Positions 39,813-44,565 of a stretch of 64,000 nt of DNA are shown one piece after another. Positions within the stretch are counted from its first letter, which is position 1, and every line of letters starts with the position of its first letter. The notes beneath the pieces were generated by a model that was given only the letters and a program-made list of their open reading frames with translations, did no database searches and was not told the origin of the DNA. A program made the position numbers and the translations under genes. This stretch comes from Escherichia phage BYEP01: the sequence record OR757453.1; one strand, 5' to 3'.

Positions 39813-40505
39813 TTATAAATTAACTGTTTTTCTAAGTATTCTTAGTTTGTACATTGATAATCCAGTAGCTTTAGAAGCATCTTTCATGCATTTATACTTA
39901 ACACCATTTACTTCTATAGGTTTAGCAGCTGGGTTATTAGCTCCTGAATTATCTGGCATGTTATCTTTAATTTTCTGAATAGATTTAGCGGAATGTTTCC
40001 TTCCATACATGCCATTATTTTTACCTGATTGATTGATAGAATGCAATCTTTTAGCTTCTTCAGTCCATTTTGTTGGGTTCATTCTTTTAGTTTTACTAAT
40101 TTTACTTCCCCACGTAATTGGACGATTTTTCATGAGTTTTGACATATATTGTTTATGTTCTTCCGTATGGTGTTTTCCGTAAAATGGATTACCTTCACCT
40201 GATTGAAGTTTTGCCATTTTACGACGTTCCCAGGCGTAAGATTTATTAACGTGTCTTTCATGAGTATTTGAATTCATTCCCATACATATAACGGCTTTAA
40301 TTATACCGTAATGGTTTGGATGAATTTTAGCTAAAAGTTTATGAGCTATAAAATGCTCTTCAGCTGTTAGTTCTACCAAATTACACTTATCATCTGTACC
40401 ACCCATACATCTAGGAATTATATGATGAGTTTCAGTGTATCCATTAAGGCGAGCCCGATTCTGGGCTCTATTAATTAAATTATCATATATTAATTTATAA
40501 TTCAA
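39813..40505 (-). CDS. HNH homing endonuclease (Mob-like, 230 aa) between uvsW and uvsW.1; apparent TTG start
   Basis: MNYKLIYDNLINRAQNRARLNGYTETHHIIPRCMGGTDDKCNLVELTAEEHFIAHKLL (HNH motif); start codon TTG (rc of 40503-40505) overlaps uvsW stop; AAGAGG RBS 7 nt upstream. Confidence 0.8.
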   Translation of the reverse strand: MNYKLIYDNLINRAQNRARLNGYTETHHIIPRCMGGTDDKCNLVELTAEEHFIAHKLLAKIHPNHYGIIKAVICMGMNSNTHERHVNKSYAWERRKMAKLQSGEGNPFYGKHHTEEHKQYMSKLMKNRPITWGSKISKTKRMNPTKWTEEAKRLHSINQSGKNNGMYGRKHSAKSIQKIKDNMPDNSGANNPAAKPIEVNGVKYKCMKDASKATGLSMYKLRILRKTVNL

Positions 40506-42013
40506 AGTTTAACCTCTTTCATCACATAATTAAACTTCTCATCAGCATAACGCTGAATACGATCAAGTCCATGTTTTAAAAGATAGTTTAAATGCGAGTA
40601 TTTTTTAGAAGATGTTTTTGATTTAGAAACTACGCCCGCGTCATCTATGAGATCCCAGACTGTTGCGATTGTTTTAGAACCATGCTTACGTAATACGCGA
40701 CCTATTGTTTGCAATACAATAATTTTAGATTTAACACCGTGTGCTAAAACAACATGATGCAGATTTTTAACTGAAATACCAGTAGAAAATACACCATAAC
40801 TCGCTACTATAATTATTCCTTTACCATTTTCAGCTAAGGTTTTCATTACGTTGCGGGTTTCGGTATCAACTTCCCCTGATACGTAATAAACTTTATCGTA
40901 TTCATTTTTAATTAAATCGAAAATAGCTTTACCGTGCGATACGTGTTTAAACATGACAAAAGCGTTTTCATCTTTTTGTGCAAGTTTAATAGCTAATTTA
41001 GCGATCCATTTATTTCTTTTACTGAGCCCAGTAATAATTTTTATTTCTTCTTGGTAAGTTTTTCCCTTTAATTTAGTAGTGAACTCATCAGGATAGCGAA
41101 GAAAAATACTATTAATTTTTAACTCAGTTACTTGTCCATCTTCCATTAATTTAGAAGTCGTTACTGGCTTAAATATTTCACCAAACATTCCAACATACTG
41201 CATGATATTGGCTTTGCCATCACGTAATGAACCGGACAAACCGAATTTGAACATGCAGTTATTTAAACCTGATATGATAGATGAAATACTTTTTCCTGTA
41301 GCAAGATGGCATTCATCATTCATCATCATTCCAAACTGTGAGAACCATTCTTTCGGTTGTTTAACTACAGTTTGCCATGTACCAACGACGACTGGTGCAT
41401 CATTTTTATATTTATCATCTTTTGATGCTCCGCCGCCAATTTTCTTTATCATTGCATGACTGAATAAACGATAGTCAACAAAGTCATCAGCCATCTGAGT
41501 TGTCAGAGCAGTTGTTGGAACAATGATAAGAATTTTACCTTCATAATTTTCCAAATAATATCGCGCAAGCAAAGCTTGGATTAACGATTTACCAGCGGAT
41601 GTTGGAAGATTAAGAATTCTACGACGATTAACTAATCCTTCGAACACTGCATCTTTTTGATACCAGTGCGGTTCAATTCTTTTATTTCCTGAATAGATTT
41701 CTAATTTAGAAAGCCATTCATCAAAATCTTTTCTTGATAATTCTTCTTTTTCGTTAATCTGCGGGTCAATCCAGGCTTTATAGCCAAAATTATCACAGAA
41801 CTTTTTAATTTGCCCGACTAAGCCGAATGGAAGAAGACGATTATAATCTAAAAGACGGATTCGTCCATCCCAGTGGCCATATCTGTATTTCGGATTAAAA
41901 CGATACCCATCAGCTTCAAAGCTAAAGAAATCACGGAGTTCATGAAATGTACTTTCTTCACAATCAATTCTCACGTGACTAAAATCATAAAAATGTACTT
42001 TAATGTCAGTCAT
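40502..42013 (-). CDS. uvsW: UvsW RNA-DNA and DNA helicase (503 aa)
   Basis: MTDIKVHFYDFSHVRIDCEESTFHELRDFFSFEADGYRFNPKYRYGHWDGRIRLL...PTSAGKS (Walker A)...DECH; recognised as T4 UvsW. Confidence 0.95.
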   Translation of the reverse strand: MTDIKVHFYDFSHVRIDCEESTFHELRDFFSFEADGYRFNPKYRYGHWDGRIRLLDYNRLLPFGLVGQIKKFCDNFGYKAWIDPQINEKEELSRKDFDEWLSKLEIYSGNKRIEPHWYQKDAVFEGLVNRRRILNLPTSAGKSLIQALLARYYLENYEGKILIIVPTTALTTQMADDFVDYRLFSHAMIKKIGGGASKDDKYKNDAPVVVGTWQTVVKQPKEWFSQFGMMMNDECHLATGKSISSIISGLNNCMFKFGLSGSLRDGKANIMQYVGMFGEIFKPVTTSKLMEDGQVTELKINSIFLRYPDEFTTKLKGKTYQEEIKIITGLSKRNKWIAKLAIKLAQKDENAFVMFKHVSHGKAIFDLIKNEYDKVYYVSGEVDTETRNVMKTLAENGKGIIIVASYGVFSTGISVKNLHHVVLAHGVKSKIIVLQTIGRVLRKHGSKTIATVWDLIDDAGVVSKSKTSSKKYSHLNYLLKHGLDRIQRYADEKFNYVMKEVKL

Positions 42014-42063
42014 GTCTAAATACCATGTAATAAATATATCTATATTTATACTGAGGAAATATT

Positions 42064-42744
42064 ATGATAGATAAAGATTATATTGCAGAGCTGAAGGCTC
42101 TTGATGATAATAAAGAAGCTAAAGCTAAATTAGCTGAATACGCTGAACAGTTTGGTATAAAGGTCAAAAAGAATAAATCTTTTGATAATATCGTTGCTGA
42201 TATTGAAGAAGCCCTCCAGAAGCTCGCTAGTGAACCTATGCCAGAGACTGATGGGTTATCTATTAAAGACTTAATTGATGCTGCTGATGCCGCAGACGGA
42301 TTAAAATATGACGATGAAGAAGTCAATCCAGAGGCAGCACTTCTGATTGATTCTCCGGTTAAATCTGACATTAAAATTGAAGTAGTAGAAATGGATAAAA
42401 TTCCTGAAAATACCGATGTTTTGATTGAAGATACTCCTTTTGTTGAAGAAAAATTCGAGCAGGCTGTAGCTGAGATTATTGAATCTGAAAAGCCGTCTGT
42501 ATTTACTCTTCCGGAAAACTTTAGTCCGAATCTTCAGCTGATTGGAAAAAATCCAGGATTCTGCACTGTTCCTTGGTGGATTTATCAATGGATAGCTGAA
42601 ACTCCGGATTGGAAATCTCACCCAACTAGTTTTGAACACGCGTCGGCACATCAAACTTTATTTAGCTTAATTTATTACATTAATCGCGACGGATCAGTTC
42701 TAATTCGTGAAACACGCAACTCTTCTTTCGTAACATTAAAATAA
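42064..42744 (+). CDS. inh: Inh, inhibitor of prohead protease (226 aa)
   Basis: MIDKDYIAELKALDDNKEAKAKLAEYAEQFGIKVKKNKSFDNIVADIEEALQ... recognised as T4 Inh. Confidence 0.85.
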   Translation: MIDKDYIAELKALDDNKEAKAKLAEYAEQFGIKVKKNKSFDNIVADIEEALQKLASEPMPETDGLSIKDLIDAADAADGLKYDDEEVNPEAALLIDSPVKSDIKIEVVEMDKIPENTDVLIEDTPFVEEKFEQAVAEIIESEKPSVFTLPENFSPNLQLIGKNPGFCTVPWWIYQWIAETPDWKSHPTSFEHASAHQTLFSLIYYINRDGSVLIRETRNSSFVTLK

Positions 42745-42753
42745 GGATAACTT

Positions 42754-43605
42754 ATGGCTTTTACAGTTGATATAACTCCTAAAACACCTACTGGAGTTAT
42801 AGATCAGACTCAGCAGTTTACTGCTACACCCAGTGGTGAAACTGGAGGTGGAACTATTACCTATGCTTGGACTGTAGACGATGTTCCACAAGATGGAGCT
42901 GAAGCAACTTTTAGTTATGTACTAAAAGGACCTGCCGGTCAAAAGACTATTAAAGTAGTTGCAACAAATACACTTTCTGAAGGAGGCCCGGAAACGGCTG
43001 AAGCGACAACAACTATCACAGTTCAAAATAAGACACAGACAACTACCTTAGCTGTAACTCCTGATAGTCCTGCTGCTGGAGTGATTGGAACTCCTGTTGA
43101 ATTTACTGCTGCTTTAGCTTCTCAACCATCAGGCGCATCTGCTACGTATCAATGGTATGTAGATGATTCACAAGTTGGTGGAGAAACTAACTCTACATTT
43201 AACTATACTCCAACTACAAGTGGAGTAAAAAGAATTAAATGCGTAGCCCAAGTAACAGCAACGGATTACGACGAAAAAACAGTTACTTCTAATGAAGTAT
43301 CACTGACTGTGAATGATAAAGTTGCTCCGGAACCAGAAGGTGAATTACCTTATGTTCATCCTCTTCCACATCGCACTTCAGCTTATATCTGGTGCGGTTG
43401 GTGGGTTATGGATGAAATCCAAAAAATGACTGAAGAAGGTAAAGATTGGAAAACTGAAGATCCAGATAGTAAGTACTACTTGCATCGTTACACTCTTCAG
43501 AAGATGATGAAAGACTATCCAGAAGTTGATGTCCAAGAATCGCGTAATGGATACATCATTCATAAAACTGCTTTAGAAACTGGTATCATCTATACCTATC
43601 CATAA
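42754..43605 (+). CDS. hoc: Hoc outer capsid protein, short form (283 aa; two Ig-like domains plus capsid-binding domain)
   Basis: MAFTVDITPKTPTGVIDQTQQFTATPSGETGGGTITYAWTVDDVPQDGAEATFSYVLKG...KVAPEPEGELPYVHPLPHRTSAYIWCGWWVMDEIQK...GIIYTYP recognised as Hoc; about 93 aa shorter than T4 Hoc (376 aa, recalled). Confidence 0.88.
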   Translation: MAFTVDITPKTPTGVIDQTQQFTATPSGETGGGTITYAWTVDDVPQDGAEATFSYVLKGPAGQKTIKVVATNTLSEGGPETAEATTTITVQNKTQTTTLAVTPDSPAAGVIGTPVEFTAALASQPSGASATYQWYVDDSQVGGETNSTFNYTPTTSGVKRIKCVAQVTATDYDEKTVTSNEVSLTVNDKVAPEPEGELPYVHPLPHRTSAYIWCGWWVMDEIQKMTEEGKDWKTEDPDSKYYLHRYTLQKMMKDYPEVDVQESRNGYIIHKTALETGIIYTYP

Positions 43606-43610
43606 TCATA

Positions 43611-43636
43611 AGGGGCTTCGGCCCCTTTCTTCATTT
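43611..43636 (+). terminator. rho-independent terminator (AGGGGC-ttcg-GCCCCT then TTCTTCATTTT)
   Basis: Perfect 6-bp stem, UUCG loop, U-rich tail after hoc. Confidence 0.7.
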
Positions 43637-43694
43637 TGAAAGCACACAAAACACAATCAGAAAATGATGTATATAATGGCACCAACTCGATAAC

Positions 43695-44184: not shown

Positions 44185-44565
44185 ATGTTTAAAAAGTATA
44201 GCAGTCTTGAAAATCATTACAATTCTAAATTCATTGAAAAACTTTACAGTTTAGGATTGACTGGCGGCGAATGGGTAGCTCGTGAAAAGATTCATGGCAC
44301 AAATTTCTTACTGATTATTGAACACGATAAAGCAACTTGTGCTAAACGTACTGGACCGATTCTTCCTGCTGAAGATTTCTTTGGGTACGAAATTATTCTA
44401 AAGAATTACGCTGATTCCATTAAAGCAGTACAAGATATTTTGGAAGAAACTTCTCGTGAAGGTATTACTCTAACTCAAGCGGATAATCCTTCTTTGATTA
44501 AAAAGGAATTAGTTAAAATGGTACAAGATGTACTTCGTCCGGCTTGGATTGAATTGGTAAGTTAA
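44185..44565 (+). CDS. rnlB: RNA ligase 2 (Rnl2) remnant: N-terminal about 82 aa fused in frame to C-terminal about 44 aa (126 aa)
   Basis: [41 protein letters not shown]...KAVQDI|[41 protein letters not shown]; both termini match recalled T4 Rnl2 (334 aa); most of the nucleotidyltransferase domain missing. Confidence 0.7.

Follow-up and report, generated by a model that had tools for sequence, protein, structure and literature searches.

Nanoparticle vaccines based on T4 rely on Hoc as their main display scaffold, and the protein is also the proposed mucus-adherence factor of the T-even phages. In phage T4, residues 281-376 of Hoc form the domain that binds the gp23* hexamers of the capsid, and three Ig-like domains precede this capsid-binding domain (PMC10385173). 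Homologues of Hoc with 1, 2 and 10 Ig-like domains have been reported, and the charge of the protein was linked to virion dispersion by Fokine et al. (both in PMC10385173). The hoc gene is dispensable in the laboratory (PMC3012670). According to the passage of PMC11853027 in which the mutation is cited, the residue affected by the mucin-adaptive D246N mutation of T4, D246, is located in domain 3 of its Hoc. A variant Hoc that "lacks Domain 3" has been described for phage PNJ-9 by Fu et al. (J Virol 2024; PMC11853027), who placed the domain boundary at N187|D188, with Domain 2 comprising N92-N187 and Domain 4 comprising D188-283. The same study established that PNJ-9 still adheres to intestinal mucus by means of this two-Ig Hoc, through domain 2, which binds MUC2 fucose via S183/L184/T185, and that an anti-Hoc antibody stops PNJ-9 from adhering to the mouse gut mucosa (PMC11853027).

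This paper describes the hoc gene in a stretch of 64,000 nucleotides from Escherichia phage BYEP01 (sequence record OR757453.1), the whole of which is referred to as the window. The two-Ig architecture of the encoded Hoc is already known, as it was published for PNJ-9 (PMC11853027), and the additions made here, which are minor, consist of a census of the forms with two, three and four Ig-like domains, a junction analysis that points toward a single origin of the two-Ig form, and evidence for purifying selection. With a probability of roughly 0.88, the gene is a natural and functional hoc allele of a T4-like coliphage, from which Ig domain 3 was precisely removed by an in-frame deletion of 279 bp, leaving a product that would consist of domain 1, domain 2 and the capsid-binding domain.

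The hoc gene of BYEP01 and the domain that is absent from its product

The hoc coding sequence occupies positions 42754..43605 on the + strand, starts with ATG, and comprises 283 codons without internal stops, followed by the stop codon, and the strand opposite to it is closed by many stops. The preliminary description of this DNA had given a Hoc ORF of 283 aa together with its sequence, and both are borne out by the intact reading frame. Besides its match to T4 Hoc, the product matches PHROG 1149 ('Hoc-like head decoration') with an E-value of 2e-105, and it is 100% identical to WPK17856.1, which was deposited as 'PKD domain protein' of Escherichia phage BYEP01. In the paper on BYEP01 (PMC12951479), Hoc, PKD and decoration are all unmentioned.

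A phmmer search with the window Hoc against all PDB sequences retrieved T4 Hoc alone (5vf3_Z and four further entries; E = 7e-182), with a length of 376 aa. [quoted passage not shown] In the phmmer alignment, residues 1 to ~188 of the two proteins are colinear, residues ~189-283 of the window Hoc correspond to T4 residues ~282-376, and the identity across the 283 shared positions is 94%. The DNA alignment with T4 hoc contains a single clean gap of 279 bp (T4 nt 564-842) and no other indels, which makes the window Hoc exactly 93 aa shorter than its T4 counterpart, as against the approximate figure of 93 aa proposed beforehand. The segment of T4 Hoc that is absent from the window Hoc comprises the 93 residues 188-280 (KKTMNPQV...GNVTVT). 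Since the gap starts directly after SLTVN, the motif at the end of domain 2, and ends with the residue preceding T4 residue 281, i.e., the residue before the capsid-binding domain, its limits correspond to a clean removal of Ig domain 3. Judged by this alignment, the window Hoc is without exactly one of the Ig-like domains of T4 Hoc, namely domain 3, and has domain 1, domain 2 and the capsid-binding domain intact. It departs in this respect from the canonical three-Ig architecture of T4 (376 aa) in having two Ig-like domains; the loss of one such domain, as advanced in the preliminary description, is upheld by the alignment to T4, in which the domain counts of the two proteins are not equal.

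The assignment of the individual domains draws on several lines of evidence. Ig-like domain 1 (aa 1-92; 42754..43029, + strand) aligns with T4 Hoc 1-92 and was modelled by AlphaFold2 as a beta-sandwich with a pLDDT of about 87-95, and Ig-like (PKD) domain 2 (aa 93-187; 43030..43314, + strand) is recognized by the Pfam PKD profile, by alignment to T4 domain 2, and in the AlphaFold2 model. The PKD match extends over aa 99-158 and scored 24 bits, relative to a gathering cutoff of 23.5 bits. Homology between the two N-terminal segments of ~93 aa is detectable (36% identity, E = 2e-9). AlphaFold2, for which an alignment of 30 sequences of close relatives was used as input, folded residues 1-92 and residues 94-187 into one beta-sandwich each, with pLDDT values of mostly 80-95, and Foldseek searches with this model gave tandem Ig/FnIII matches that span about 200 columns and include the Hoc of RB49 (3shs). 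The mutual identity, the PKD score, the predicted beta-sandwiches and the Foldseek matches all agree with the two Ig-like repeats of approximately 95 aa that had been read from the sequence before.

[quoted passage not shown] It was modelled with low confidence (pLDDT < 50 at residues 191-216 and 256-283) because the alignment was shallow, and its assignment makes use of the near-identity to T4 and of PHROG 1149/21694, leaving the AlphaFold2 model aside. The near-identity, which extends over T4 residues 282-376, is in line with the earlier claim that the capsid-binding domain is kept.

An alternative assignment, in which domain 2 is what is missing, or in which the second domain of the window Hoc is a hybrid of domains 2 and 3, finds a precedent in the related protein P0022, a 378-aa form that contains a duplicated domain 2 and a D2/D3 hybrid domain. 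However, the second domain of the window Hoc matches T4 domain 2 throughout, the DNA being ~90% identical over its whole length to codon 187, and its alignment to T4 domain 3 is weak. With the gap opening exactly past the SLTVN motif at the end of domain 2, this alternative is almost certainly wrong, and domain 3 is retained as the domain that is absent.

Genomic surroundings, occurrence and maintenance of the short gene

In the window, hoc is located downstream of inh (inhibitor of prohead protease; 42064..42744, + strand; PHROG 1051, E = 4e-102), with uvsW (40502..42013, - strand) as the neighbour on the inh side, and on its 3' side come two small ORFs, a remnant of rnlB, and genes 24 and 23. 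This gene order, inh-hoc-24.3-24.2-rnlB-24-23, is syntenic with that of T4, with the upstream inh fixing the syntenic position of hoc, and the order inh-hoc is also encountered in phage KIT06. The best match to the 16-kb region around hoc among phage records is 97.7% identical. An SD-like AAGGA, read from the sequence at 42743..42747 (+ strand), lies 6 nt 5' of the hoc ATG and overlaps the inh stop codon, and it presumably functions in ribosome binding. A GC-rich hairpin that resembles an intrinsic terminator, AAGGGGC-TTCG-GCCCCTT followed by a T-run, is present just past the hoc stop (43610..43637, + strand), which is also the location of an annotated terminator in KAW1E185. The exact T4 late-promoter motif TATAAATA does not occur on the + strand between positions 41901 and 43700, a match at 7 of the 8 positions (AATAAATA) is found upstream of inh, and a sigma-70 scan around hoc gave scores no better than those of shuffled sequences.

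Two neighbouring loci were also inspected. An HNH-type homing endonuclease ORF of 230 aa (39813..40505, - strand; PHROG 655, E = 4e-60) is located directly downstream of uvsW and overlaps the uvsW stop codon, and a segE-type homing endonuclease, which in T4 lies between inh and uvsW, is absent from window positions 42013..42064; such variation in the presence and absence of homing endonucleases is typical for T-even phages. The rnlB ORF (RNA ligase 2; 44185..44565, + strand) encodes 126 aa, compared with 334 aa in T4 and KIT06. Its residues 1-90 correspond to Rnl2 1-90 and its residues 82-126 to Rnl2 290-334, with the overlapping residues, VQDILEETS, forming a short direct repeat. The underlying deletion is in-frame and internal and amounts to 208 aa, and since most of the nucleotidyltransferase domain is lost, the RNA ligase 2 of the window is probably inactive. 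The rnlB junction, located at about 44428-44454, was found, contiguous and at high identity, in no other record among 50,697 phage records, and the deletion could be private to this phage or an assembly issue.

A 60-bp query centred on the hoc junction identified six junction-spanning records in 50,697 phage records, apart from the window's own phage. These are the Tequatrovirus phages EP01 (China) and KIT06 (Viet Nam), the latter with one base different, and the Mosigvirus phages PNJ-9 (China), AV112 and AV113 (both Denmark), and RPN187 (Thailand). The hoc gene measures 852 bp in all five records that were sequence-checked (EP01, PNJ-9, AV112, KIT06, and RPN187), the AV113 protein is the same as that of AV112 (two accessions, one sequence), and the cluster of AV112 has one more member, which stems from an independent Logan assembly. 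The two-Ig isolates were obtained from pig, poultry, duck-gut, and wastewater sources. T4-type hoc is present in about 678 phage records, and the two-Ig form accounts for about 1% of these. The short-form relatives are deposited under the names 'capsid and scaffold protein' or 'hypothetical protein', and since Hoc appears in none of these annotations, a keyword search would miss the variant.

Within the same allele family, a four-Ig Hoc of 472 aa is found in 218 phage records; in phage BF15 (L009 479..1897), for example, domain 2 is tandemly duplicated and domain 3 is kept. As far as can be read from these alleles, the domain number of T4-type Hoc is polymorphic in both directions, and since the four-Ig form is common, a change in the number of Ig-like domains is in itself not unusual. 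The Mosigvirus genomes of PNJ-9, AV112 and RPN187 contain a T4-type (Tequatrovirus-like) hoc with the same domain 3 deletion, a pattern that implies exchange of the hoc cassette between Tequatrovirus and Mosigvirus.

The same records bear on the possibility that the short hoc is an artefact of assembly or sequencing, such as a repeat collapse, or a deletion acquired during laboratory passage in a non-essential gene. The dispensability of hoc in the laboratory (PMC3012670) is compatible with such an origin, as is the second in-frame deletion in the window, that in rnlB, which by its uniqueness among phage records indicates that the window phage or its assembly does carry private deletions. The hoc junction, however, recurs in six phages that originate from four countries and were isolated and sequenced independently of one another, as well as in the Logan assembly, and the hoc gene of PNJ-9 has been cloned, expressed and used experimentally. 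Moreover, the DNA of domains 2 and 3 is about 54% identical, with a longest common word of 10 bp, which makes homologous recombination between these segments unlikely and a repeat collapse during assembly implausible. On these grounds, an artefact or a passage-derived deletion is extremely improbable.

Among six short alleles, the pairwise dN/dS values lay at 0.11-0.33 over the entire gene, while the C-terminal domain gave 0.03-0.24 and the Ig domains 0.1-0.55. These values partly reflect divergence that recombination may have imported from long-form alleles; the whole-gene range indicates that the short hoc gene is maintained by purifying selection. The ranges for the separate domains also argue against the notion that the truncated protein is in decay and has lost its function, taking part in neither capsid decoration nor binding, a notion to which the non-essential nature of Hoc and the rarity of the variant (about 1% of the hoc-bearing phage records) would lend some weight. 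Furthermore, the reading frame is intact, the deletion is exact to the domain, almost every column of the capsid-binding domain is invariant across the 30 homologues, and the adhesion of PNJ-9 virions, which have the same architecture, is blocked by anti-Hoc antibody. A functionless remnant is therefore very unlikely, and a natural, functional allele is the reading that is preferred. The candidate readings of the window hoc as a repeat collapse, as a loss of domain 2, and as a pseudogene were rejected on the evidence given above.

The deletion junction and its origin

The deletion junction, located by DNA alignments at 43306..43320 (+ strand), reads ACT GTG AAT GAT AAA (T185 V186 N187 / D188 K189). 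The same five codons are found in EP01, PNJ-9, AV112 and RPN187, and the KIT06 junction reads ACT GTG ACT GAT AAA, with ACT in place of AAT. In the long forms, domain 2 ends with ACT GTT AAT AAG AAG, and in SH-1 and BF15 domain 3 ends with CAA GTG ACT GAT AAA. When ...ACTGT is joined to GACTGATAAA... at the shared GT, assuming an SH-1-like parent, the KIT06 junction is obtained exactly. Codon 186 is GTG, the codon of the domain 3 end, in all six short forms that were sequence-checked and GTT in all five long-form domain 2 ends examined. The part of the junction query that starts at the GTG of codon 186 finds matches in 55 long-form records.

These sequences suggest a route by which the two-Ig form may have arisen. 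A single illegitimate recombination, in which the 3' end of the domain 2 coding segment was joined at the GT microhomology to the equivalent 3' end of the domain 3 segment, would have produced the KIT06 junction, and a single C-to-A change (T187N) would have converted the latter into the junction of the window. That the endpoints are located at equivalent positions of the Ig fold, i.e., at the end of the last strand, would explain why the deletion is exact to the domain. Homologous recombination would then have spread the short architecture to other flanking alleles in both Tequatrovirus and Mosigvirus. One ancestral deletion is favoured over several by the presence of GTG at codon 186 in the short forms as opposed to GTT in the long forms, a comparison that involves one codon and five long-form comparators; under a single origin, the long-form domain 2 ends are expected to be without ACTGTGAATAAG.

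The alleles that flank the junction are mosaic. The domain 1 DNA of the window shares 98.9% identity with its counterpart in the three-Ig phage KAW1E185 and 83-94% with those of the other short forms, its domain 2 is nearest to KIT06 and SH-1 (about 92%), and its C-terminal domain is nearest to BF15 at the DNA level. Such flanks fit later recombination, which would explain how two genera came to carry the allele. They might also be taken to mean that the two-Ig form arose repeatedly, by independent deletions at a domain 2/domain 3 hot spot, and in particular the closer relationship of the window domain 1 to KAW1E185 than to the short forms could be read in this way. The two versions of the junction at codon 187 (AAT and ACT), the occurrence of the two-Ig architecture in two genera, and the other changes in domain number within the allele family (the 472-aa duplication and the 378-aa hybrid) point in the same direction. 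However, the two junctions are one base apart, the 60 bp at the junction are 92-95% identical among the short forms, all of which share the GTG that the examined long-form domain 2 ends lack, and T-even phages recombine often, so that mosaic flanks are to be expected in any case. Recurrent deletion is on balance unlikely, and a single ancestral deletion remains the favoured origin.

A broader proposition can be put forward tentatively, and is held with more doubt than confidence. It considers T4-type Hoc to display a natural fibre-length polymorphism, with two, three or four Ig-like domains, that is generated by domain-exact deletion and duplication; the two-Ig form would derive from one ancient microhomology deletion that was kept by selection and spread across genera by recombination, and both the length of the fibre and the position of domain 2 would be tuned to mucosal niches.

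Expected function and comparison with known Hoc proteins

By analogy with T4, the C-terminal domain of the window Hoc would dock at the centre of each gp23* hexamer, as a monomer and at about 155 copies per head. The fibre would fall short of the 180-angstrom fibre of T4 by about one Ig domain, at an estimated 135-140 angstroms, and a Hoc that is shorter by one Ig domain implies a different reach of the fibre as well as a different domain presenting the glycan-binding surface. In the two-Ig architecture, the last strand of domain 2 would adjoin the capsid-binding domain. Residues S183, L184 and T185 are present in domain 2 of the window Hoc, with a numbering that matches that of PMC11853027, and by analogy with PNJ-9 this last strand may confer weak adhesion to fucosylated mucin (MUC2). 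The window Hoc stays strongly acidic, with a computed pI of 4.57 (4.74 for T4 Hoc), and judged by its composition it keeps the charge property that has been tied to virion dispersion. BYEP01 is a phage under characterization for therapy, and the practical value of the present analysis lies mainly in annotation, in that 'PKD domain protein' should read Hoc, domain-3-less variant.

Among the known systems, the second Hoc of Serratia phage Muldoon (314 aa, two Ig-like domains) and the Hoc-like protein of Enterobacter phage PG7 (233 aa, one Ig-like domain) likewise have a Hoc-type C-terminal capsid-binding domain after fewer than three Ig-like domains (PMC10385173). In contrast to the window Hoc, these are distant sequences and second Hoc paralogues, and not deletion derivatives of the T4 allele. 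The four-Ig Hoc (472 aa; BF15 and 4E10) belongs to the same allele family and shares domain 1, domain 2 and the C-terminal domain with the window Hoc; it also represents an in-frame, domain-exact change in the number of Ig-like domains, located at the NKK/TQTT linker. The two differ in that the four-Ig form has domain 2 duplicated in tandem and still contains domain 3, and in that it is represented by 218 records, versus 6 for the two-Ig form. T4 Hoc (5vf3, 8t1x; PMC10385173) resembles the window Hoc in its sequence (94% over domain 1, domain 2 and the C-terminal domain) and its acidic character, and the two genes have their neighbours and the terminator in common. It differs by the presence of Ig domain 3 (188-280) and a computed mass of 40.4 kDa, against 30.9 kDa for the window Hoc, from which the D246 determinant of T4 is missing together with domain 3.

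The closest likeness is to the Hoc of PNJ-9 (PQ100635), which shares the length of 283 aa, the order of domain 1, domain 2 and capsid-binding domain, and the genomic position. The junction SLTVN187|D188KVA and its DNA are the same in both, NEVSLTVND is identical, N180-T185 are conserved, and the proteins are 87% identical without gaps (in comparison with the sequence of Table S1). The differences lie in the genome, which is that of a Mosigvirus in PNJ-9 and Tequatrovirus-like in the window, and in domain 1 and the middle of domain 2, which are other alleles (83.5% and 85.9% DNA identity, respectively). Residue 192 and the last residue are both Q in PNJ-9 and P in the window Hoc. Since the middle of domain 2 reads SPVSEATSATF in PNJ-9 and the T4-type SQVGGETNSTF in the window, the glycan specificity of the window Hoc could be different from that of PNJ-9. 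For the architecture as such, the experiments on PNJ-9 have already addressed the question of adhesion, and the window adds one member, BYEP01, to the phages that have it.
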